From: Candidatus Hadarchaeota archaeon
GTDB lineage: Archaea > Hadarchaeota > Hadarchaeia > Hadarchaeales > JAGGTB01
Assembly (NCBI GenBank): GCA_964384105.1
Contig: CAYLJV010000001.1
Location: forward strand, 512,001 to 576,000
Length of the DNA: 64,000 bases
Direction of reading: 5' to 3'
Position numbers and translations under genes: made by a program. Shown here one piece after another: positions 45,311 through 55,327 of this stretch; position 1 is the first letter of the stretch, and every line of letters starts with the position of its first letter. The notes beneath the pieces were generated by a model. It had not been told where the DNA came from. It did no database searches and saw only the letters and a program-made list of their open reading frames with translations.

Positions 45311-46612
45311 ATGTATTCGAAATATATACGCGATCCAGTTTTTGGTTATATTGGCTTGACCGAAGTAGAAAAGAACATAGTGGATACTTTCCCAGTCCAG
45401 AGGTTGAGAGGCATAAAGCAGCTTTCAGTTTCTAATATAGCTTATCCTGGAGGGGATCATAGTCGTTTTTCCCATATTTTGGGTACCATGCACTTGGCAG
45501 GCGAAATCGCAGAGAGTTTAGGCAGTAGAGTGGAGATATCTAAGGAAGATTTGCAGCTAGTTAGGCTGGGGGGATTACTTCATGATATTGGACATGGTCC
45601 TTTTTCTCATTCTTACGAAGAGATTTTGTCAAAGCATAGGAACATGACTCACGAGGACTTGGGTGCAAGAATCCTAAAGGAGAGTTCGCTCGCGGATGAA
45701 ATCAAGGCTCAAGGGTTTGAGCCAGATGAAATCGCAGAATTGGATTTTGGCGAGCCTGAAAGGGAGAGATACTTCAAGCAGATTATAACGAGTCAATTCG
45801 ATGCAGACAAGATGGATTTCTTACTCCGGGATTCTTACTTTACTGGAGTAGAGTATGGTAGAATAGACGTTCATAGGCTTATCCAAGCTATGGATGTTAT
45901 TGAGGGCGATATCGCAATAGACAAAAAAGCCATAGCTGCTCTTGAAACTTTTATGATCGCGCGTTACGAAATGTTTCTGACGGTTTATTATCATCATTCT
46001 GTCAGGGCTGCGGAGATAATGCTCAGAAAAGCGATGGATCATGCCCATGAAATTCTGGGTTTGACGACGTTTGATAGTGCCGAAGAGTTTCTTCAGTTAG
46101 ATGACGCCTACGTAGCGAGTGAACTTAAAAAATTGGATCCATCTGAATATAGAGGAGAAGATAGAGAAGAAGCGGAAAAAGCCAAGCAGCTTTTTCAGAA
46201 ACTTAGCAGACGGGATTTGTTGAAATCCGCCTTTGAAAGGACTATTTTTTTGCAGGATGAGTATGTGGCGAGACTCCTGAGCGATGAGTCAATTCGAGAG
46301 AGAAAGGAGTTAGAGATTGCCGAAAAAGCTGGAGTTGATCCTGAGTTAGTGATTGTTGATGTACCGACTCTTACATCCATGCCTTATTATCCCAGAGAGA
46401 TAGACCCTGTGGAGGTACCAATTTTCGAGACTACTCTCGAGGGTGAAAAGAAGTTAGTGCCCCTTTCTGGATATTCTAAGTTTGTTAATGTTCTGAAAGG
46501 ATACGTGGATATAATAAGAGTCTTTACTTCAAAGGAACACAGGAAATCTGTAGGGCAAGCCGCTGAGGAAGTATTTGAAGAACTACCTCTCTCGGCTAAA
46601 ATTAGTATGTGA
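45311..46612 (+). CDS. HD-domain dNTP triphosphohydrolase (SAMHD1-like)
   Basis: QRLRGIKQL, HSRFSH, LLHDIGHGPFSH, DADKMDFLLRD, VYYHH. Confidence 0.88.
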   Translation: MYSKYIRDPVFGYIGLTEVEKNIVDTFPVQRLRGIKQLSVSNIAYPGGDHSRFSHILGTMHLAGEIAESLGSRVEISKEDLQLVRLGGLLHDIGHGPFSHSYEEILSKHRNMTHEDLGARILKESSLADEIKAQGFEPDEIAELDFGEPERERYFKQIITSQFDADKMDFLLRDSYFTGVEYGRIDVHRLIQAMDVIEGDIAIDKKAIAALETFMIARYEMFLTVYYHHSVRAAEIMLRKAMDHAHEILGLTTFDSAEEFLQLDDAYVASELKKLDPSEYRGEDREEAEKAKQLFQKLSRRDLLKSAFERTIFLQDEYVARLLSDESIRERKELEIAEKAGVDPELVIVDVPTLTSMPYYPREIDPVEVPIFETTLEGEKKLVPLSGYSKFVNVLKGYVDIIRVFTSKEHRKSVGQAAEEVFEELPLSAKISM

Positions 46613-47210
46613 TGACTTTTTTTACTTCGTTTATTATTTTTTTGTGTACTTCTTTTTCTTTTAAGGTTCCATCTATCAAAGGCATTTTTTCTTCTTTTGC
46701 TAATTTTTGATAGGTTTTCCTTACCTTTTTTTGAAGGTCTAGATCGCTTTCGAAGACATCCGACTTTCCTTCAAAATTAGTCCTTTGGTAGCCGATCTCG
46801 ACTGGAATATCTATGAATATAGTTAGGTTAGGGTCTACGGCATATTTGTTGATTAGTTCGACCCATTTGCGAGGGAGTCCTCTTGAGGTTTGATATGCTA
46901 GAGAAGAGTGCAAGTATCTCTCGGTTACTACTATCTTTCCTTTTTCCAAGGCGGGCTTGATAACTTCCTGTATATGTTGGGCCCGATCACTGGCGAAGAG
47001 TAAGGCCTCCGCTTCCAACGATATATCGATCTTTCCGTTCAGAGAATCTCTGAGAGTTAGACCTATCTGATTATCAGTGGGTTCCTTAGTCATCTCGATT
47101 TCATATCCTTCCGATTTCAACCATTTGGAAAGTAACTTTGCTTGTGTGCTTTTTCCGCATCCGTCGGGTCCTTCAAGAGCTATTAGTAAACCTTTAGTAT
47201 TTTCTTTCAT
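46602..47210 (-). CDS. tmk: Thymidylate kinase
   Basis: EGPDGCGKST, KEPT, LLFASDRAQH, ERY.HSSLAYQ. Confidence 0.94.
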   Translation of the reverse strand: MKENTKGLLIALEGPDGCGKSTQAKLLSKWLKSEGYEIEMTKEPTDNQIGLTLRDSLNGKIDISLEAEALLFASDRAQHIQEVIKPALEKGKIVVTERYLHSSLAYQTSRGLPRKWVELINKYAVDPNLTIFIDIPVEIGYQRTNFEGKSDVFESDLDLQKKVRKTYQKLAKEEKMPLIDGTLKEKEVHKKIINEVKKVITY

Positions 47211-47276
47211 TTTTCAAAACAACCATTCTAACAATATATTAAGATCCGTAATTGTAAAAATACTGAAGTTTTTTAG

Positions 47277-47672
47277 TTACCTATTCACTTCTACGTTCCC
47301 ATTTCTTATAGTAACGAAATCTTCATTTTTTATGACTTCGATCGGATTCTTATTGAGTTTGTGAACTAGAGGAATGTCCGCGATGATCGCACCGGTTGCA
47401 ACTATCGGTTCCGTATTGACATTTATCATCGCAGCTGGTGCTTTATTGTTTAGAACAAGTTGGTAAATTACATAAGACCCTACTGTACTCCCCTTTCCGT
47501 GGGGAAATACGAGAATTTTATTTTTGAGTTTTTTTCCTTCTAATTCATGACCGGATTCTATGACCACCCCTGTTTCTGCATTCACTCCGCCTAGGAACGA
47601 AAGTGGGTCCTTTGTTACAAGCGCTTTTCCTTCAGCGCGTCCTTTTCTTACTGCTTCTCCTTTAAGCTTCAT
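47277..47672 (-). CDS. Phosphomevalonate dehydratase small subunit (AcnX swiveling domain, DUF126)
   Basis: LSFLGGVN..TG, FPHGKGSTVGSY. True start is ATG 47672 (ATGA overlap with the large subunit), not 47897. Confidence 0.88.
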   Translation of the reverse strand: MKLKGEAVRKGRAEGKALVTKDPLSFLGGVNAETGVVIESGHELEGKKLKNKILVFPHGKGSTVGSYVIYQLVLNNKAPAAMINVNTEPIVATGAIIADIPLVHKLNKNPIEVIKNEDFVTIRNGNVEVNR

Positions 47673-48841
47673 CTTATCAACTCTTTTAGTGGAGCAAAGT
47701 GTACTTTTACACCGGCTAGCAACGGAGCATAGTATGCCGCTTTGGCGGAATTTACTCCTATTTTTTCGTAGCCCATCTCTGCCAAGGGGGCCACAACCAT
47801 GCAAGTATCGCAGACAAGTCTCACATTCTTTTTTTCGAGTAGTTGAAGTTCTTCTGGATCGAGTTTCTCTTTTAGGTTTCTGGCCAAGCATAGCCAAATT
47901 TCCTTTTCCCCCGCGTTTTCTATTATACTCTTTATTTCATCTTTTGAAGCGTGTGGACATCCTATGCAGATGATATCGGTGTCGCTGACTTGATCGAGTT
48001 CGTTTACAACTTCTTCTAATTCTTCTTTTCCAAATTCTACTTTTTCCTCCCCTTTGCAAATCTCCGGGTTTCTTTTCGCCTCTGCAGTTACTTCGGGAAT
48101 GTGATAAAGTGCTATTGCTCCAGAGGTTGCTAGGCCCGCGCCAAGCGCCTTTTTTTGATCTTCGGTTGGTCTGAGATTTTCTATGATAGGAGTTGCTTCT
48201 GGAAACTTTTTTCCGATCCAGTAACCGAGAACACTGTAAGGAAAAGTTTCATCGCTCTTGAAAAGATTTGAGTCGGGTTTTATCGTTACATCACCCGTTC
48301 TATTCTCGTCTAAATGATATCCATGGAGGGGGGTTAGTCCGGTGATAGCGGAGGCGAGTGCGCTAGGAGCTCCTTCTCTGTTTGTCCTGGCTCCGAGAAC
48401 TGAGTTTGCATAAACTACGGCGGAAGATTCCGCCCAGGCTAGGTGGTCTCCGAAAGAAGGGTTGTTACCGATTAGATAGGGGGTACAGGAACAAATCGGT
48501 GTCGCACCCATCTCTTCGTAAGCTTTGACCATCCTCAGTTGTTTTTTGGACATTTCTTTTGGGGCGCCCAATTCCTTCCAGTTTTTAAGGTCCATGCCTG
48601 CGGGGTTTATAGTAGTGGGGACTGAAACTTTGGCTCCCTTTTCTACTAGATCCTCGAGGAAGTTTAGACCGGCATCTCCGGCGGTTCTTACGGAAACTCC
48701 TGACACGTGTGCGTTTTTTATGGGTATTAGTTTGTCTGCGTTGTATATCTCACCGAGCGCTACTAGAATTTCCATTGCTTTCTTAGAGGCTTTTCCTTCC
48801 TCACCGGCTAAGATATTTTCTTGCTTTTTTGTAAGATGCAA
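47669..48841 (-). CDS. Phosphomevalonate dehydratase large subunit (AcnX catalytic domain)
   Basis: AHVSGVS, CSCTPY, AWAESSA..ANSVLGARTNRE, GCPH, DTCMVVAP, NSAK. Confidence 0.88.
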   Translation of the reverse strand: MHLTKKQENILAGEEGKASKKAMEILVALGEIYNADKLIPIKNAHVSGVSVRTAGDAGLNFLEDLVEKGAKVSVPTTINPAGMDLKNWKELGAPKEMSKKQLRMVKAYEEMGATPICSCTPYLIGNNPSFGDHLAWAESSAVVYANSVLGARTNREGAPSALASAITGLTPLHGYHLDENRTGDVTIKPDSNLFKSDETFPYSVLGYWIGKKFPEATPIIENLRPTEDQKKALGAGLATSGAIALYHIPEVTAEAKRNPEICKGEEKVEFGKEELEEVVNELDQVSDTDIICIGCPHASKDEIKSIIENAGEKEIWLCLARNLKEKLDPEELQLLEKKNVRLVCDTCMVVAPLAEMGYEKIGVNSAKAAYYAPLLAGVKVHFAPLKELIR

Positions 48842-48853
48842 TGTAGTCTACCT

Positions 48854-50140
48854 CTACTCTTCTGGGATTTTCGCTTTTTCGAACCTTTTTGGATCTTCTA
48901 AATCTTTTGTTGCATCGATTCCCATTTTACAACCTAATCGAGATTCGGGATCGGCAGTGGGGTCTAGACTAGAGCCCCGGACATTGGATTTGATTAAAGA
49001 ATCAGTATCCCCACGGAAGCGGGTGGCGATTGCCCATTCTACTTCCCTCATGTTGTAGATATCTATATCTTCATCTACGACCACTACATGTTTCACGCTG
49101 GGATGTCCTTTAAAGGCAGCCTCGATGGCTTTTTTTCCATCTTTCTCATTCTTTTTGTCTATGCTTACTACAGCATGTAGCCATCCACATCCCCCAGGTG
49201 TGAGGGCTACGTTGATCGTTTTAACGACATGGTTCACTTCTTCAAAGATGAGAGGTTCTCTTGGAGTCCCCATTAGAAGTTGATGTTCGATACTGCCAGG
49301 GAGTATTGCGGGATAAATCGTTTCTTCTCTCCTTGTGATGTACTTTACTTTGAACACGGGTTGCTTCCTGACTGCGTCGTAAGTTCCAGTGATGTCTGCA
49401 AATGGTCCTTCTGGGGCTCTTTCTTCGGCAAGTAGTTTTCCTTCTAGAACTATTTCTGAAGTGGTTGGAACTTCTAGATCCATGGTCCTGCATTTTACGA
49501 GTTCTAAATCTTTTGTGAGAGCATTTGCTATGGCATATTCGTCTCTTTCGTATTCCACCGAGGTCGCTGCTGCTAAGGCTACTCCGACATCTACCCCAAG
49601 AATAGCGGCTACATCAAGATCTTCGTTATTTCGTTCTTTTTCTTTGAAGATTTTGTGAAGGTCCCGAGGAACTAACCGGATTGTGAACTTATCCTTTTCA
49701 ATCAGTTGCATTCTGTGAAACGATAGATTGCGGATACCTTCAGAGTCTTTTGCGACTATTATGCTTGAAGTAACGTATGGTCCCCCATCTTTTTCAAAAT
49801 GTTTCAAAATTGGAAGTTTTTGGAGATTGACTTTATCCTTTTCTATTTCTTGAGCTGGTCCACTGGCTTTTATTCTAGGTTTTTTCTTGTTGGAAAGTGC
49901 ATCTTTCATTTTTCTGAGCAGGTCATCTTTTTTTATTCCCAGATTTTCCGCTACCCTTTCTCTAGAACCGTATATATTTCCGGCCAGTCTTATATCGGAT
50001 TTTTTGACTTTTTCAAAAATTATAGGATCGTCAGATTTGTTTAGTTTGGAAGAAATCTCATATTTTGGACTTATTTCGTTCTTTACATGCTCAAGCCTTT
50101 TCTCTCGATCTAATTTGTTTATAAAATCTCTAAAATTCAT
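48854..50140 (-). CDS. ubiD: UbiD-family prFMN decarboxylase, probably anhydromevalonate phosphate decarboxylase
   Basis: DGGPY, SFHR, EGPFADITGTYD, GGCGWLH, VDEDID, EWAIATR, GSSLDP, KMGIDAT. Confidence 0.88.
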   Translation of the reverse strand: MNFRDFINKLDREKRLEHVKNEISPKYEISSKLNKSDDPIIFEKVKKSDIRLAGNIYGSRERVAENLGIKKDDLLRKMKDALSNKKKPRIKASGPAQEIEKDKVNLQKLPILKHFEKDGGPYVTSSIIVAKDSEGIRNLSFHRMQLIEKDKFTIRLVPRDLHKIFKEKERNNEDLDVAAILGVDVGVALAAATSVEYERDEYAIANALTKDLELVKCRTMDLEVPTTSEIVLEGKLLAEERAPEGPFADITGTYDAVRKQPVFKVKYITRREETIYPAILPGSIEHQLLMGTPREPLIFEEVNHVVKTINVALTPGGCGWLHAVVSIDKKNEKDGKKAIEAAFKGHPSVKHVVVVDEDIDIYNMREVEWAIATRFRGDTDSLIKSNVRGSSLDPTADPESRLGCKMGIDATKDLEDPKRFEKAKIPEE

Positions 50141-50145
50141 TATTT

Positions 50146-50703
50146 TTAAAGACCTCTCCAAGCTTGATAAAGTTGGTGTTCAATACCAATTTGATCCAGT
50201 ATTTTGCCCACTACGAAGTTGACTAAATCTTCTATTGATTTTGGCTTGTGGTAGAAGCCGGGTGATGCAGGAAGGATCGTTGCGCCAGCTTTCTTCAGTT
50301 TTGTCAGATTGTCCAAATGAATCGCGTGCAGTGGTGTTTCTCTGGGAACTAATATCAACTTCCTATTTTCTTTTAAAGCCACATCTGCAGCTCGAGTTAT
50401 GAGGTTGTCTGCTATCCCACTGGCTATGGACCCTATTGTTTTCATACTACAAGGGACGATAATCATACCATCATTTTTCACAGAACCACTAGCTATAGGT
50501 GCCCCGATTTCTTTATATCCATAATAATTAGTTGATTTTCTCTTTATTTCATCTATTTTATCTTCTAGTTCAAATTTCATTATTTTTTCTGCGGCTGGGG
50601 ATATTATGAGGTTTGTTTTGATCTCTTTTTTCGAACATACCTCTATTAGCTTTTTTCCGTAGACGACTCCACTAGATCCGGTTATAGCGATTATTAATTC
50701 CAT
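50146..50703 (-). CDS. ubiX: Flavin prenyltransferase UbiX
   Basis: ITGSSG, APIASGS, PCSMKT, RAADV.LKE.R, RETPL, PGFYHKP. Confidence 0.94.
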   Translation of the reverse strand: MELIIAITGSSGVVYGKKLIEVCSKKEIKTNLIISPAAEKIMKFELEDKIDEIKRKSTNYYGYKEIGAPIASGSVKNDGMIIVPCSMKTIGSIASGIADNLITRAADVALKENRKLILVPRETPLHAIHLDNLTKLKKAGATILPASPGFYHKPKSIEDLVNFVVGKILDQIGIEHQLYQAWRGL

Positions 50704-50778: not shown

Positions 50779-51612
50779 TTAACTTTTAAAGCTATTTCGA
50801 ATTTTTTGAAGTTCGGATAAGCTGTATTTTAGGAAGGGATCCTCATTTTCGGGAATCCACCCTTCTACTGTCACAATTCCGTTAAATGGCCTAAGCTTGC
50901 TAAGAACTTTTTTAAAGTCTATATTTCCCTGTCCGAGGGTTAGATGGTCATCTTCGCCAGTATTATCACTTACATGGACATGAGCGATGTATTCTTTCAA
51001 TTCTTTTACGTATTCAAGTGGTCCAGTTTTTGTGGTATTTGCGTGGGCGATGTCGAGATTTAATTTAAGATTTTTCATATTAACTCTGTCTAAAACTTTC
51101 TTTATCTCCGGAATTCCAACACACATTGCCTTCTTTTTTGAGGATAAGTTTTCCATACAAATTTTGACACCAAAATTTTCGGCGAAACTGGTTATTTTCT
51201 TGAAGTTGTCCACCATTTTATTGAATACCATTTTCCTTTCGTATTTTCTAGATGCTATAAATCCAGGGTGAACAACCACGATGTCTGTACCGAGATAATC
51301 TGCAGTTTCTATACATTCTTTAAGTTGTGAGATAACTTCTTTTTCAATACCACGGTTTAGTGTGGCTATATTACAGTCATGGTAGGGTGCATGAAGAGAA
51401 ACACTAGTTTCTACTGTTGATAGCACCTCTTTTACTTCTTTTTTAGTTTTTTCCGCTTTTTCAGTCCCCCAACCTTTGAAAAAAGGACTTTCACAGTGTA
51501 TTTCTACGGCTTCAAAACCTAGGTCATCTACAGAATGAATTATGGCTTCAGGAATATTGAGTTTTTTATAGTCCCACATTATGGCAGTTGAAACGCCAAT
51601 TAGCATCTTCAA
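50779..51612 (-). CDS. TIM-barrel metalloenzyme of the xylose-isomerase-like/AP-endonuclease-2 superfamily
   Basis: VEIH, LHAPY, HPG, MEN, LDIAH, HVSDN, DHL..G.G.IDF, VE. Confidence 0.85.
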   Translation of the reverse strand: MKMLIGVSTAIMWDYKKLNIPEAIIHSVDDLGFEAVEIHCESPFFKGWGTEKAEKTKKEVKEVLSTVETSVSLHAPYHDCNIATLNRGIEKEVISQLKECIETADYLGTDIVVVHPGFIASRKYERKMVFNKMVDNFKKITSFAENFGVKICMENLSSKKKAMCVGIPEIKKVLDRVNMKNLKLNLDIAHANTTKTGPLEYVKELKEYIAHVHVSDNTGEDDHLTLGQGNIDFKKVLSKLRPFNGIVTVEGWIPENEDPFLKYSLSELQKIRNSFKS

Positions 51613-51626
51613 ACCTTGTTACCTTC

Positions 51627-52853
51627 CTACATTTTCAATGTCATTATTGGTTTTAATTTTGCCGCTATAGTAGAAAGATCAAATTCCATTGTTTTTCTTA
51701 TGACTTCTTTTCCTCTATAGGAATATGGCAATTCGTGAGGATTTGTGATTGTCATTTTCCCGAATTCAGAGATGCCACTATCTACTTCTATCTCACTCAC
51801 TTTAGAAGCGGGTTTGGGATTGGAAAGTTCGTAAACATTACCAAAATTTGTTGAGATTATATCTACATTTCGGTAGGAAAGTTCGACTTTGTATCCCCCT
51901 CCGTGTGGAAGGATGTTTATGTTTCTGAGCTTTTCTAGTAACCCTAATTTCCTTGCTCTTTCCTTGAATTCTAACCTTTCTATAACTTCTTCAGAGAGGT
52001 TTCTTTTACCTTTAAAGACGTAGACGGGGCAATCCCAACGAAGAGCCACAGGAAATAATCTGTTTTTCCCGGAATTATCCATTGTATTATAGCATCCTAA
52101 TCTCGCTTCGGTTTTCGAGAATAAACCTTGGTGAGTGAAGTTGGAGATAGTATTGAATTCTCCTACAACCTCTTGGGCCAAAGCTTCTCTTCTCTTCTTT
52201 GAAAATGCATCTAATCTTTTCCAATTTTCATAATATTCCTCAATTTCCTCTCCTTTTAGGGTACTTATTTTTCCGAGAGGGGTCTCGATTTTTTCACTTT
52301 TTTCTACGAATGAATAAACGCTGTTTTTTAGTTCGGGACTTGAAGAGTGAAGGATGGCGAAATAAGCATCTGAAGGAAGTATGCTAGAAAAATCTTCTGA
52401 GACTTCGAGGGGCTCGTAGAATTCAAAGAAATGATTACCTTTTCCGAAATCCGGTTTTATTTCAATTCCTTCTAGCTCTATATGTTCCTCGTTAACTTCA
52501 GATGCTCTTTTTACTACTTTTTTAGTGTCGGGTATTTCTTCAAGGCGCATTAGGATCATACCGCATCCATTTGGTCTTATTTCGGGGAAAGACACGTTTT
52601 CATCTTCCCACCCGATTACACCGCCGTAACCGTATCCTGAGAGCCACCTTTTCTTGTTTCTTGTGATGGATGCATCAGGTGCAAAAACACAGTAGACGTT
52701 AGAATTGTTTAAGGCGTACATCATTTTTCCTAGGCCGTAGAGGGTATTTTTATAGGAAAGTGCGGAGCCTAGGTCTCTTTTTCCAAGTGAGAAAACTCTT
52801 TCTTCTGCAAGGGAGAGTAAATCTTTGCCTGAAAGTGATCTTATGTCTTCCAT
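51627..52853 (-). CDS. Highly divergent RtcB-fold protein
   Basis: Motifs in RtcB order: APD, GYGGV, GCGM, GKGNHFFE, ILHS, THQ, PHGGG, ELPYSYR, LKPIMTLK. GGTGAT Shine-Dalgarno before ATG at 52853. Confidence 0.75.
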   Translation of the reverse strand: MEDIRSLSGKDLLSLAEERVFSLGKRDLGSALSYKNTLYGLGKMMYALNNSNVYCVFAPDASITRNKKRWLSGYGYGGVIGWEDENVSFPEIRPNGCGMILMRLEEIPDTKKVVKRASEVNEEHIELEGIEIKPDFGKGNHFFEFYEPLEVSEDFSSILPSDAYFAILHSSSPELKNSVYSFVEKSEKIETPLGKISTLKGEEIEEYYENWKRLDAFSKKRREALAQEVVGEFNTISNFTHQGLFSKTEARLGCYNTMDNSGKNRLFPVALRWDCPVYVFKGKRNLSEEVIERLEFKERARKLGLLEKLRNINILPHGGGYKVELSYRNVDIISTNFGNVYELSNPKPASKVSEIEVDSGISEFGKMTITNPHELPYSYRGKEVIRKTMEFDLSTIAAKLKPIMTLKM

Positions 52854-53113
52854 TTTTATCACCAATTCCAAATTAGAGCTTATAAGTAGACGGTTTTCCA
52901 GTATATGAATTTAATCTATTGATTGAATCCGACTACCGCTTATAAGTTCTGTCAGAAAAACTTGAAAAAGGTATATGATGAGGAGATTTGGAATAAATTT
53001 TGACTTCAATCGAAAAATACAATTAAAAAAATAGAAATAAAAATCCAACCGGTTTTAGAGGTTTTTTGATTTTGGGTTAGAATTAAATTTTTTGACTTCT
53101 AACAAATATATAC

Positions 53114-55327
53114 ATGTCTTCTCAGGAAGAGGTAGGATCGAAAAGCTTTGGTGCTTTTTCGGGAGTATTCGTACCGACTTTTCTAAGTATAATGGGAGTT
53201 ATCTTCTTCTTGCGATTAGGTTACGTCGTGGGGGTCGGTGGTGTGGCAGGTTCGATTCTTATTATTCTGATATCAGTTTCTGTCACGTTCGCCACTGGCT
53301 TATCTCTCAGTTCTATAACCACTAACATAAAAATAGGTCCAGGTGGAGCATATTCCATCATCTCCAAAACACTCGGTATAGAAATAGGAGGTAGCGTCGG
53401 CGTCCCGCTTTTTCTCGCACAAGCATTTTCTGTGGCTCTCTATATATTTGGGTTCGCGGAAACCTGGGTTTTCATATTTCCCGAACACCCCTTTTTGCTG
53501 GTTGCTTTGGGGATATTTGGGGCCCTTTTTCTCCTCGTGTTTATAAGTACAAAAATTGCGGTGCAGGCCCAGACGGTAGTATTTTTAGCGGTCTGTGTCT
53601 CCTTAATCTCCGTCTTTGCCGGAGGTAATCTACTTGACATAGGAAGCAGATCTCTCACAACACCCATTCTCGGGGCTTTTGCGGAGATGGACTTCTGGTC
53701 ACTCTTTGCTCTTTTCTTTCCGGCAGTAACAGGACTTATGGCCGGGATCGGGATGTCTGGCGAGTTGAGTGATCCAAAAAGGCAGATTCCCCGAGGAGTC
53801 TTACTTGGACTGGGAATAACGACCGTTCTCTATATCCTTCTAGTCGTATGGTTCGGTTACTCCGCTACCACGGCCGAACTTATAGACAATCCCCTTCTTA
53901 TCGTGGAGTTCGCTGCTTTCTCTCCCGCAGTTCTAGTGGGAATTCTCGCAGCGACCTTTTCCAGCGCCCTCACAACAATCATAGCCGCCCCACGAGTTCT
54001 ACAGGCCCTGTCACGGAATAGAGTTTTGCCATTCAGTGATATGCTGACCAAGAAAACAGAAAAAGGAGAGCCTAGAAACGCGACTTTACTTACGGGGTTG
54101 ATCGTCGTGATACTGTTGCTCATAGGGTCTCTCAACTCGATCGCTCAGATCCTAACCATGTTCTTTCTGATAGCTTACATGATGATTAACGTCTCCGTAT
54201 TTATCGAGCAATTCCTGGGTCTACCAAGTTTCAGGCCCACGTTTAGAGTTCCAAAGGTAATCCCTCTCTATGGAGCAATATCATCGTTTGTAATAATGTT
54301 TCTCATCAATATCCCTGCTGGAATTGGTGCTCTGGCTTTCGTTTTCGTAATGTATCTATTTCTAGTGAACAGGAAATTGAAACAGGAATCAGGAGACGTT
54401 CGTTCGGGTCTGTTCAGGGAGATCTCAGAATGGGCCACTAAGAAGATAAGAAAATTACCCGAATCGAGGGAGCATATATGGAAACCAAACTTATTGCTCC
54501 CAGTTCTGACAACTCGAACTCTTTCAGGGAACTTCCCACTAATAAAGTCGATAGCTTATCCTCACGGCACAATGACCGTGTTGGGATTTAAACTTACCAG
54601 AAATATCGATGACAACCCAGAGGTAGGAGAAGAGATCACAAAGGCGCAGATGGATAGAGAGCTAGAACAACTGCCCAAGCTTGTAAAAAGGTTCGGTGAA
54701 GAGGGAATATTCACCAATTTCTCCATGATAGAGTCAAAAGACTACGTTGAAGGCGTTCTTACATCTCTAGGGGCTATTTCTAGTCAAGTATTTTCCCCAA
54801 ACATACTTTTCTTACCTTTCAGACCCGACAAGATTTCAAAGTCGTCTCTGAAGAGAATAGCCAATACTTCAAAAGATGCTGGAAACGGCATCATCATCTT
54901 CGACAGAGACAAGGAGCTGGGACTAGGTTCCGAGAAGGAAATTCATCTTTGGATCTCCTCAGAAGCATTGGATAAAGATTTCGAAGAGGACAGATATTAC
55001 GATCTGGCAGGGCTGGTAGCCAACGAAATAAAAGAGAATTGGGACGGTACCATCAATCTGCACATGTGCATTTGTGAGAAAACAGAAAGGAAAGTGAAAA
55101 ACTATCTAAAAAAATTGATTGATGAGGCGAGGTTCTCCCCAGAAGACACTAAAATAAATATTGAAACGAAAGAGTTTATCGAAGCTTTACAGGAAGCACC
55201 AGATGGAGATCTTCATATAGTGCCATTTGATAGCTCGGACCTAAGTACGGTATTTGAGGCTGTAGAAGTAAAAGATAAATCCTACCTTTTTGTCTTCGAC
55301 TCGGGTAAGGAAAACTTACTGAGCTGA
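53114..55327 (+). CDS. Cation-chloride cotransporter (SLC12/CCC-like, APC superfamily)
   Basis: GVFVPTFLSIMGVIFFLRLG.VVG, GGAY.IIS..LG.E.GG, FFPAVTG.MAG..MSG.L..P, APR.LQA, FRPTF, WKPN, large soluble C-terminal domain. Confidence 0.88.
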   Translation: MSSQEEVGSKSFGAFSGVFVPTFLSIMGVIFFLRLGYVVGVGGVAGSILIILISVSVTFATGLSLSSITTNIKIGPGGAYSIISKTLGIEIGGSVGVPLFLAQAFSVALYIFGFAETWVFIFPEHPFLLVALGIFGALFLLVFISTKIAVQAQTVVFLAVCVSLISVFAGGNLLDIGSRSLTTPILGAFAEMDFWSLFALFFPAVTGLMAGIGMSGELSDPKRQIPRGVLLGLGITTVLYILLVVWFGYSATTAELIDNPLLIVEFAAFSPAVLVGILAATFSSALTTIIAAPRVLQALSRNRVLPFSDMLTKKTEKGEPRNATLLTGLIVVILLLIGSLNSIAQILTMFFLIAYMMINVSVFIEQFLGLPSFRPTFRVPKVIPLYGAISSFVIMFLINIPAGIGALAFVFVMYLFLVNRKLKQESGDVRSGLFREISEWATKKIRKLPESREHIWKPNLLLPVLTTRTLSGNFPLIKSIAYPHGTMTVLGFKLTRNIDDNPEVGEEITKAQMDRELEQLPKLVKRFGEEGIFTNFSMIESKDYVEGVLTSLGAISSQVFSPNILFLPFRPDKISKSSLKRIANTSKDAGNGIIIFDRDKELGLGSEKEIHLWISSEALDKDFEEDRYYDLAGLVANEIKENWDGTINLHMCICEKTERKVKNYLKKLIDEARFSPEDTKINIETKEFIEALQEAPDGDLHIVPFDSSDLSTVFEAVEVKDKSYLFVFDSGKENLLS

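Follow-up and report, generated by a model that had tools for sequence, protein, structure and literature searches.

A gene in a 64,000-nucleotide (nt) stretch of the genome of a Candidatus Hadarchaeota archaeon (contig CAYLJV010000001.1, positions 512,001 to 576,000; hereafter, the window) encodes a 408-amino-acid (aa) protein that has the predicted fold of the ligase RtcB and retains its putative catalytic core. The gene is an accessory copy in a genome that also carries a canonical RtcB, and it is followed by the gene of a triosephosphate isomerase (TIM)-type barrel, a probable metallo-phosphoesterase. Judged from its conserved residues and its neighbors, we tentatively propose, with less than even confidence, that the protein is an active, deeply diverged enzyme of the RtcB superfamily, which would use GTP and Mn to activate the 3'-phosphate end of a nucleic acid, either DNA or RNA.

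The 408-aa protein has the predicted fold of RtcB

The AlphaFold model of the protein (predicted local distance difference test, 91.1; predicted template modeling score, 0.90) was compared with solved structures by two methods. Foldseek matched it to RtcB chains with E values of 1.8e-9 to 1.3e-7 and a probability of 1.00. At E<=0.001, 16 matches were obtained; the 12 listed were all RtcB, and the remaining 4 were further chains of those entries. When VIA-align was run against ten RtcB entries, 303 to 318 residues were aligned at Z scores of 22.7 to 25.8 and a root mean square deviation of 3.0 to 3.4 A, spanning the model from residues 7 to 10 through residue 408, at an identity of about 15%. 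The best non-RtcB fold reached a Z score of 4.5. A profile of 36 family members searched against the PDB (E up to 10) gave four matches, all four of them RtcB, at E values of about 0.007. By its predicted model, the 408-aa protein has the RtcB fold, which bears out what an earlier note on this DNA, made from the sequence alone, had read from the order of short motifs. All of these motifs are present in the translation (APD, GYGGV, RPNGCG, GKGNHFFE, ILHSSSPE, THQ, ARLGC, PHGGGY, HELPYSYR, and LKPIMTLK).

A global hhalign alignment of the family with 13 canonical RtcBs was unsuccessful, and local hhalign alignment reached a probability of just 29 to 48%. Homology is therefore based on the structure match, and hhalign was used for motif pairing alone. 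Residues were paired by local profile alignments together with motif order; hhalign was unreliable over the ARLGC stretch, the proposed counterpart of HRKGA.

The putative catalytic core is conserved across the family

The alignments propose D60, C97, N140/H141, E144, H169, H241, H317, Y379, and K407 as a putative catalytic set, whose pairing with residues of Pyrococcus horikoshii RtcB is given in Table 1. Glu206, Tyr451, and Lys480 of the latter presumably form its guanine pocket. The roles of its metal ligands and of His404 are described in the literature (PMC8051266). Counterparts of the ligands of Mn1 (Cys98, His234, and His329) and of the ligands Cys98 and His203 of Mn2 are retained as C97, H169, H241, and H141.

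Conservation was counted over 81 sequences, namely, the window protein and those of 80 loci, which were the best 80 of 272 genome matches and include related genomes, so that the counts are non-independent. N140, H141, F142, H169, H241, and H317 were found in 81/81 sequences and C97 in 80/81. At the guanine-pocket positions, Y379 was found in 80/81, K407 in 77/81, and E or D at position 144 in 74/81. Among 210 full-length members, 195 retained the Cys and all four His, and 4 had Ser or Gly in place of the Cys. The claim that the metal and His-GMP residues are largely kept thus extends from one protein to its relatives. In the 36-sequence family alignment, 33 columns were invariant, and the invariant residues specific to the family include R65, R69, W70, E174, R222, R272, and R380.

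The gene is a patchy accessory member of a widespread family

A word-indexed search found 229 related proteins at E<=1e-3, and an exhaustive search returned 391 clusters (50% identity), of which 153 had E<=1e-30. RtcB-like relatives are encoded in at least 272 archaeal and bacterial species genomes; the 80 loci analyzed come from Hadarchaeota, Altiarchaeota, Hydrothermarchaeota, Bathyarchaeia, Asgard archaea, Chloroflexota, Planctomycetota, Atribacterota, Spirochaetota, Clostridia, and other groups. The open reading frame (ORF) is far beyond chance, and its product, which is 100% identical to a 408-aa database protein (P0001), is a member of a conserved family. Among the matches listed, all but one are named "hypothetical protein" in the databases. 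A literature search found no description of the family, and a prior mention is possible. The family tree used below came from a quick IQ-TREE search with Shimodaira-Hasegawa-like approximate likelihood ratio support only, from which one short sequence (<350 aa) was left out.

As the earlier note had argued, the protein is not the tRNA-splicing ligase of its genome: a canonical RtcB of 485 aa is encoded elsewhere (C1:261115-262422). Canonical RtcB was found in 40 of 41 relatives, and the RtcB-like gene was found in 8 of the 41 and in 11 of the 66 genomes of the phylum. Since the canonical enzyme is present in the same genome and in 40 of 41 relatives, the RtcB-like copy is an accessory gene of patchy distribution.

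In six relatives (G002, G004, G011, G018, G021, and G028), the canonical RtcB lies within open frames of 874 to 973 aa. Its Pfam match is split there into two pieces (positions ~1 to 50 and 46 or 49 to 426) that lie 1.3 to 2.4 kb apart, in one open frame in five of the six; in G028, a TAA interrupts the first piece. These genes look like intein-bearing copies, and that of the window's genome is uninterrupted.

No clear sign of a mobile or defense origin of the RtcB-like gene was found. Plasmid and phage collections gave no match for a bacterial RtcB-like member, and PADLOC gave no match for the RtcB-like protein or for the HD-domain and ATP-grasp proteins described below; for the TIM barrel, it returned a weak match of 35 bits to the candidate model PDC-M70B.

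One metagenome cluster (P0149, 743 aa) has an APH-type kinase domain (PF01636, residues 57 to 268) fused to an RtcB-like domain (residues 338 to 735). The latter retains the Cys and the four His, and the kinase domain looks intact, with weak thiamine-kinase/APH-like NCBIfam matches. A search for longer fused RtcB-like forms found none besides P0149; P0163 (565 aa), taken up as a further fusion, was rejected because its tail is low in complexity and rich in Arg and looks like a frame error.

A probable metallo-phosphoesterase is the recurrent partner

ORFs were called in the 80 loci and clustered, and the clusters were annotated. A TIM barrel gene lies downstream of the RtcB-like gene in 14/80 loci, 13 of them with gaps of 1 to 51 nt and one with an 840-nt gap and an intervening ORF. 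All 14 fall in the Hadarchaeota/Altiarchaeota part of the tree. In 15 other loci, from at least four independent lineages, an HD-domain gene adjoins the RtcB-like gene instead. The 16 copies of the HD gene stand on either side of it (11 downstream and 5 upstream), which favors linkage over frozen synteny. TIM and HD genes never occur together in one locus, and each directly adjoins the RtcB-like gene. In 27/80 loci, one or the other lies no more than 200 nt away in the same orientation; for the 62 loci whose flanks both extend over at least 900 nt, the count is 21.

Within the order of the window's genome, a strict orthologue of the TIM barrel (>450 bits) was found in G000, G001, G003, and G006 only, each of which also has an RtcB-like gene of the close clade. 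In the remaining genomes of the order, TIM paralogues reach 116 bits at most. In G005, the RtcB-like gene lies at a contig end, where a partner is not assessable. The idea of a conserved RtcB-like/TIM pair, raised in the earlier note, thus holds for the Hadarchaeota/Altiarchaeota clade and fails elsewhere, where the HD gene takes the place of the TIM barrel or the RtcB-like gene stands by itself. At the core of the system, an RtcB-like enzyme is conserved, and a metallo-phosphoesterase recurs beside it without being obligatory.

The 277-aa TIM protein of the window matches AP_endonuc_2 (PF01261) at an E value of 1.2e-41. Its closest solved chain is MJ1311 (3wqo; E 6.5e-33 with the single sequence and 1.1e-47 with a profile), followed by Art22 and endonuclease IV chains and then by sugar epimerases. 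When it was aligned with the endonuclease IV (Nfo) of the same genome, seven metal-ligand columns were invariant (H114, E153, D186, H189, H212, H222, and E249), and two further ligands, D220 of the D-x-H motif and the first His (HAPY versus HGTY, displaced by one column), were identified by reading the alignment rows. The full set of metal ligands ascribed to the barrel in the earlier note is therefore present, measured against nine positions that we take to be the ligands of endonuclease IV. This set argues for a phosphoesterase rather than a sugar isomerase. The protein was not filed as an Nfo because it scored well under both NCBIfam Nfo cutoffs (58.5 versus 244 bits and 39.8 versus 129.65 bits); sugar epimerases and CbiR scored in the same range as the Nfo models. 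MJ1311 itself is listed as the predicted endonuclease IV homologue of Methanocaldococcus jannaschii (PMC2770678). The HD partner has Lin1889, 2pq7, YpgQ (5dqv), and YedJ as its closest solved relatives (E 2.7e-15 to 8.5e-14). A complex prediction for the RtcB-like protein and the TIM barrel scored 0.00, below the mark, and counts neither way.

The window's genome encodes three AP_endonuc_2 TIM barrels: the RtcB-linked one, a true Nfo with 264.9 bits on TIGR00587 (L094 1390-2277 [+], C1:163834-164721), and a third paralogue (L096 1483-2298 [-], C1:325532-326347), whose best NCBIfam match is the cobamide-remodeling phosphodiesterase CbiR (61.5 bits versus a cutoff of 105). A 414-aa ORF lies directly upstream of the third paralogue on the same strand.

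Possible reaction and substrate

If the RtcB-like protein is active, Mn2+ would be held by C97, H141, H169, and H241, and E144, Y379, and K407 would line the GTP-binding pocket. A covalent His317-GMP would then be formed, and GMP would be passed to a phosphomonoester of the substrate to give X-pp-G. N140 would position a hydroxyl, the attack of which would yield a phosphodiester with release of GMP. The metallo-phosphoesterase partner may clean or de-cap ends that are unsealable. The two genes are inherited together as a cassette, in which the partner is the TIM barrel in this genome and an HD hydrolase of the YpgQ type elsewhere.

We lean toward a nucleic-acid end as the substrate because the TIM partner has the endonuclease IV ligands and endonuclease IV enzymes as its nearest characterized relatives in the profile search, because PolX genes and a YpgQ-like HD gene occur as neighbors, and because RtcB itself can cap DNA. 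PolX lies directly downstream of the RtcB-like gene in four Planctomycetota loci, where it is followed by an NTPase_1 gene, lies within a fifth (L063), and is divergently upstream in the Hadarchaeota locus L002; these neighbors point to nucleic acids and to DNA ends. RtcB is known to cap DNA 3'-phosphate ends (PMC8051266) as DNA3'pp5'G, a cap that the X-family polymerase beta extends (PMC4381079) and that the HIT enzyme aprataxin removes (PMC4499129). YpgQ is described as a Mn-dependent (d)NTP pyrophosphohydrolase (PMC8177086).

Several findings weigh against this proposal. The 408-aa protein matched no Pfam family at E<=0.01, PF01139 (RtcB) included, and its sole NCBIfam match, the RtcB model PRK09588, reached 21 bits against a cutoff of 407. 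The Mn2 ligand Asp95 is not kept: GYDINCG aligns with RPNGCG, which puts Pro94 at this position, and both Pro94 and the next residue, Asn95, are invariant. The earlier note had suspected that the ligand was lost or shifted. Many members have no adjoining phosphoesterase, and in seven further loci of the window's own order, the RtcB-like gene has none of these partners. The main reason for not rating a nucleic-acid substrate higher is the rebuilt acceptor side. The 5'-OH strand is contacted in P. horikoshii RtcB by Asn202, Arg190, Gln194, Arg238, and His242 (PMC8051266), and of these five, Asn202 alone is retained (N140, 81/81). Arg238 aligns with position 173, at which the five commonest residues are P (31), S (15), D (13), Q (9), and G (6) of 81, with no Arg among them, and the adjoining Glu174 is invariant. 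The columns aligned with Arg190, Gln194, and His242 are acidic, aliphatic, or variable; those of Arg190 and Gln194 are D/E and I/V/L, in a stretch where the alignment is weak. The loss of basic residues typical of RNA ligases, noted earlier for the single protein, is in this respect a property of the family. A K or R at position 176 (75/81) might substitute for the lost Arg238.

Other neighbors of the gene, added to the same list of objections, fit a different substrate. A family of ~445-aa proteins without a Pfam or NCBIfam match occurs in 12/80 loci (including L019 4485-5816 and L024 4050-5384), with at least four independent changes of this adjacency on the tree. Its model (predicted local distance difference test, 83.2) matched glutathione synthetase, GshA-like, and glutathionylspermidine synthetase structures at E values of 2.4e-14 to 1e-9 and, on that evidence, has the fold of a glutathione-synthetase-type ATP-grasp ligase. 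An AstE/AspA/DoeB-like deacylase gene usually adjoins it; L019 and L024 carry, in this order, genes for a metallo-beta-lactamase, the deacylase, the ATP-grasp ligase, the RtcB-like protein, and the TIM barrel. ATPgrasp_ST and RimK genes flank two further loci, a GalT-like HIT gene adjoins in four Asgard loci, and the APH-type kinase of the fusion P0149 is typical of small-molecule metabolism.

These neighbors suit a synthase of small-molecule phosphodiesters or pyrophosphates, in which the phosphomonoester of a metabolite would be guanylylated to X-pp-G and coupled to a hydroxyl. The TIM or HD protein would remove a leftover phosphate, much as the phosphatase does where a synthase and a phosphatase gene are paired, and the ATP-grasp ligase and deacylase would add or trim an amino-acid tail. 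The missing Arg238 with the invariant Glu174 beside it and a characterized relative of the HD partner that works on free nucleotides (PMC8177086) speak for such an enzyme as well. We regard it as a serious but somewhat unlikely rival. PolX neighbors and an endonuclease IV-type site suit DNA better, and the kinase fusion is represented by one cluster alone. With this query, no copy of the ATP-grasp gene was found in the window's own genome, which is 90% complete, and the gene is therefore not needed for function here. To our knowledge, no RtcB-fold enzyme acts on anything except polynucleotide ends. Neither an osmolyte nor a lipid head group, offered in the earlier note as example substrates, is specifically indicated by any finding. 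The fuller version, in which the protein is the first RtcB-fold enzyme outside nucleic acids and makes, by itself, a metabolite, cofactor, or solute with a phosphodiester or pyrophosphate linkage, with the TIM or HD protein as the finishing phosphatase and the ATP-grasp ligase, deacylase, and fused kinase building the rest in some lineages, is in our view unlikely.

In known routes to F420 (CofC/CofD) and to cobamides (CobY or CobU, CobS, and a phosphatase), a phosphomonoester reacts with GTP to give X-pp-G, which is attacked by a hydroxyl, and GMP leaves. The cobamide route ends in a phosphatase step, and F420 receives a glutamyl tail from ligases. In the small-molecule reading, the RtcB-like protein alone would do the work of a pair such as CofC/CofD or CobY/CobS. 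The overall chemistry resembles the RtcB cycle, but the folds are unrelated, and the likeness is one of resemblance, not membership. Weak CbiR matches, together with neighbors in up to four loci, had suggested that the RtcB-like protein might replace CobS in the assembly of the cobamide loop. This was not supported, as CobS was found in 4/41 relatives and three of these four also carry the RtcB-like gene. The neighbors concerned are convergent genes in Altiarchaeales loci where no TIM barrel was found: RACo, the reductive activator of corrinoid Fe-S protein, with two CdhD-family genes in L013, L014, and L021, and one CdhD-family gene in L016.

The protein could also be a spare RNA ligase: an RtcB paralogue that evolves fast, joins RNA 2',3'-cyclic-phosphate and 5'-OH ends as the canonical enzyme does, serves stress-related RNA repair, and has incidental neighbors. 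The RtcB fold with a complete catalytic set would suit this, as would the RtcB paralogues with repair roles that bacteria carry, such as RtcB2-PrfH, and in 15 loci of one lineage, the divergent neighbor is a tRNA methyltransferase-like gene (GCD14). We regard this explanation as improbable: strict co-occurrence with the TIM barrel and order-independent adjacency of the HD gene across phyla are hardly incidental, the residues that contact the 5'-OH strand have not been conserved, the divergence from RtcB structures is extreme, and neither archease nor RtcA is among the recurrent annotated neighbors of the 80 loci. A noncatalytic or regulatory RtcB-fold protein, such as a sensor of GTP or nucleic acid, would fit the loss of Asp95 and the few members without the Cys, but is very improbable given that the Cys, the four His, the Asn, and the guanine pocket are nearly invariant in archaea and bacteria, a sign of selection for catalysis.

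Comparison with known systems

RtcB ligase (P. horikoshii, Escherichia coli, and human; PF01139) shares with the window protein the fold over ~310 residues (Z ~25), the order of motifs, and counterparts of Cys98, Asn202/His203, Glu206, His234, His329, His404, Tyr451, and Lys480. The window protein differs in its low identity and missing Pfam match, in Pro-Asn in place of Asp95 and HGGGY in place of HGAGR, in the PGSM loop, which was not found in it, in its status as an accessory gene beside the canonical enzyme, and in the strand-contacting residues Arg190, Gln194, Arg238, and His242, none of which is kept at the aligned position. Its fold and catalytic core place it in the RtcB superfamily, and its sequence-model scores and strand-binding residues place it outside the described RtcB family.

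The additional RtcB copies of Myxococcus xanthus (RtcB1 to RtcB3) and E. coli (RtcB2-PrfH) are reportedly recognizable members of the RtcB family whose end chemistry is altered. They are a precedent for additional copies with specialized roles in repair or capping, and no endonuclease IV-like or YpgQ-like partner is reported for them in the literature examined. As for the partners, the TIM protein resembles endonuclease IV as an AP_endonuc_2 barrel with the nine ligand columns but falls under the Nfo cutoffs. YpgQ/YedJ-type HD hydrolases resemble the HD gene that replaces the TIM barrel in 15 loci, unlike the window, which has no such gene.

Gene calls and surrounding genes

The coordinates of the locus are given in Table 1. 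The ATG at 52853 was preferred as the start of the RtcB-like gene over the TTG at 52871 because GGTGA lies a few bases 5' of it. From the TAG stop of this gene (51627-51629) to the TTG start of the TIM gene (51612), the distance is 14 nt, or 20 nt should translation begin at the ATG at 51606. The spacer with its GAAGGT motif suggests that the two genes are co-transcribed and that their translation is coupled. A scan for sigma-70 promoters and terminators was uninformative, the host being an archaeon.

Table 1. Features of the window and residues of the RtcB-like protein paired with Pyrococcus horikoshii RtcB
Feature	Location	Strand	Remarks
RtcB-like gene	51627..52853	-	408 aa from ATG at 52853
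RtcB-like ORF, alternative start	51627..52871	-	414 aa from first in-frame TTG at 52871
Intergenic spacer	51613..51626	-	14 nt; GAAGGT ribosome-binding-like motif inside; read from sequence
TIM-barrel gene	50779..51612	-	Endonuclease IV-like, MJ1311-type putative metallo-phosphoesterase; 277 aa (275 aa if ATG 51606 is used)
ubiX	50146..50703	-	Pfam
ubiD-family decarboxylase gene	48854..50161	-	Pfam
AcnX large-subunit gene	47669..48841	-	Pfam
AcnX swivel/small-subunit ORF	47277..47897	-	206 aa; swivel match confined to residues 99 to 178
Thymidylate kinase gene		-	Pfam; last in the row from ubiX (46602-50703)
Cation-chloride cotransporter gene	53114..55327	+	737 aa; both prokaryotic CCC C-terminal domains
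HD/HDIG protein gene	45311..46612	+	433 aa
D60 (PD60)	residue 60		Pairs with PD65; local hidden Markov model (HMM)/hhalign
C97	residue 97		Pairs with Cys98; local HMM/hhalign
N140/H141	residues 140 and 141		Pair with Asn202/His203; local HMM/hhalign
E144	residue 144		Counterpart of Glu206; local HMM/hhalign
H169	residue 169		Pairs with His234; local HMM/hhalign
H241	residue 241		Pairs with His329; by eye, ungapped NFTHQG on VAHNIA and strand pattern
H317	residue 317		Pairs with His404 (GMP acceptor), HGGGY on HGAGR; local HMM/hhalign
Y379	residue 379		Pairs with Tyr451, PYSYRG on APGAYK; local HMM/hhalign
K407	residue 407		Pairs with Lys480, C-terminal LK on AK; local HMM/hhalign

Downstream of the pair, Pfam matches bore out the co-directional run of ubiX, ubiD, acnX (large subunit and swivel), and tmk named in the earlier note. 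UbiX, a UbiD-like protein, and AcnX together are, we assume, the archaeal set for the modified mevalonate pathway (phosphomevalonate dehydratase and anhydromevalonate-phosphate decarboxylase). A link between this run and the RtcB-like/TIM pair was rejected, as none of the 80 other loci has these neighbors. The swivel ORF overlaps the end of the AcnX large-subunit ORF by ~230 nt, and its true start probably lies further downstream. The cotransporter gene is divergent and upstream of the RtcB-like gene. The 433-aa HD/HDIG protein, with weak dGTP-triphosphohydrolase-like matches (22 to 28 bits, far under the cutoffs), is unrelated to the YpgQ-like HD partner of other loci.

In the archaeal locus L077 (2268-3842), a pyruvoyl-dependent arginine decarboxylase gene and a gene of the deoxyhypusine synthase family lie directly downstream of the RtcB-like gene, and the same two polyamine genes lie a few kilobases upstream in the Planctomycetota loci L047, L048, L057, L069, and L081. 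This proximity could be chance synteny.

Implications

RtcB chemistry, in which a 3'-phosphate is activated with GMP carried on a histidine, is so far known only from RNA splicing and repair and from DNA capping in vitro. The RtcB-like family is a large branch of this fold without a Pfam model, found mostly in uncultured anaerobic archaea and bacteria, in which the catalytic core has been retained and the substrate side rebuilt and which travels with a phosphoesterase. If its substrate is a nucleic acid, the gene pair would be a cassette devoted to the sealing or capping of 3'-phosphate ends, possibly those of DNA, next to PolX. If its substrate is a small molecule, the RtcB mechanism would for the first time be seen at work in small-molecule metabolism.

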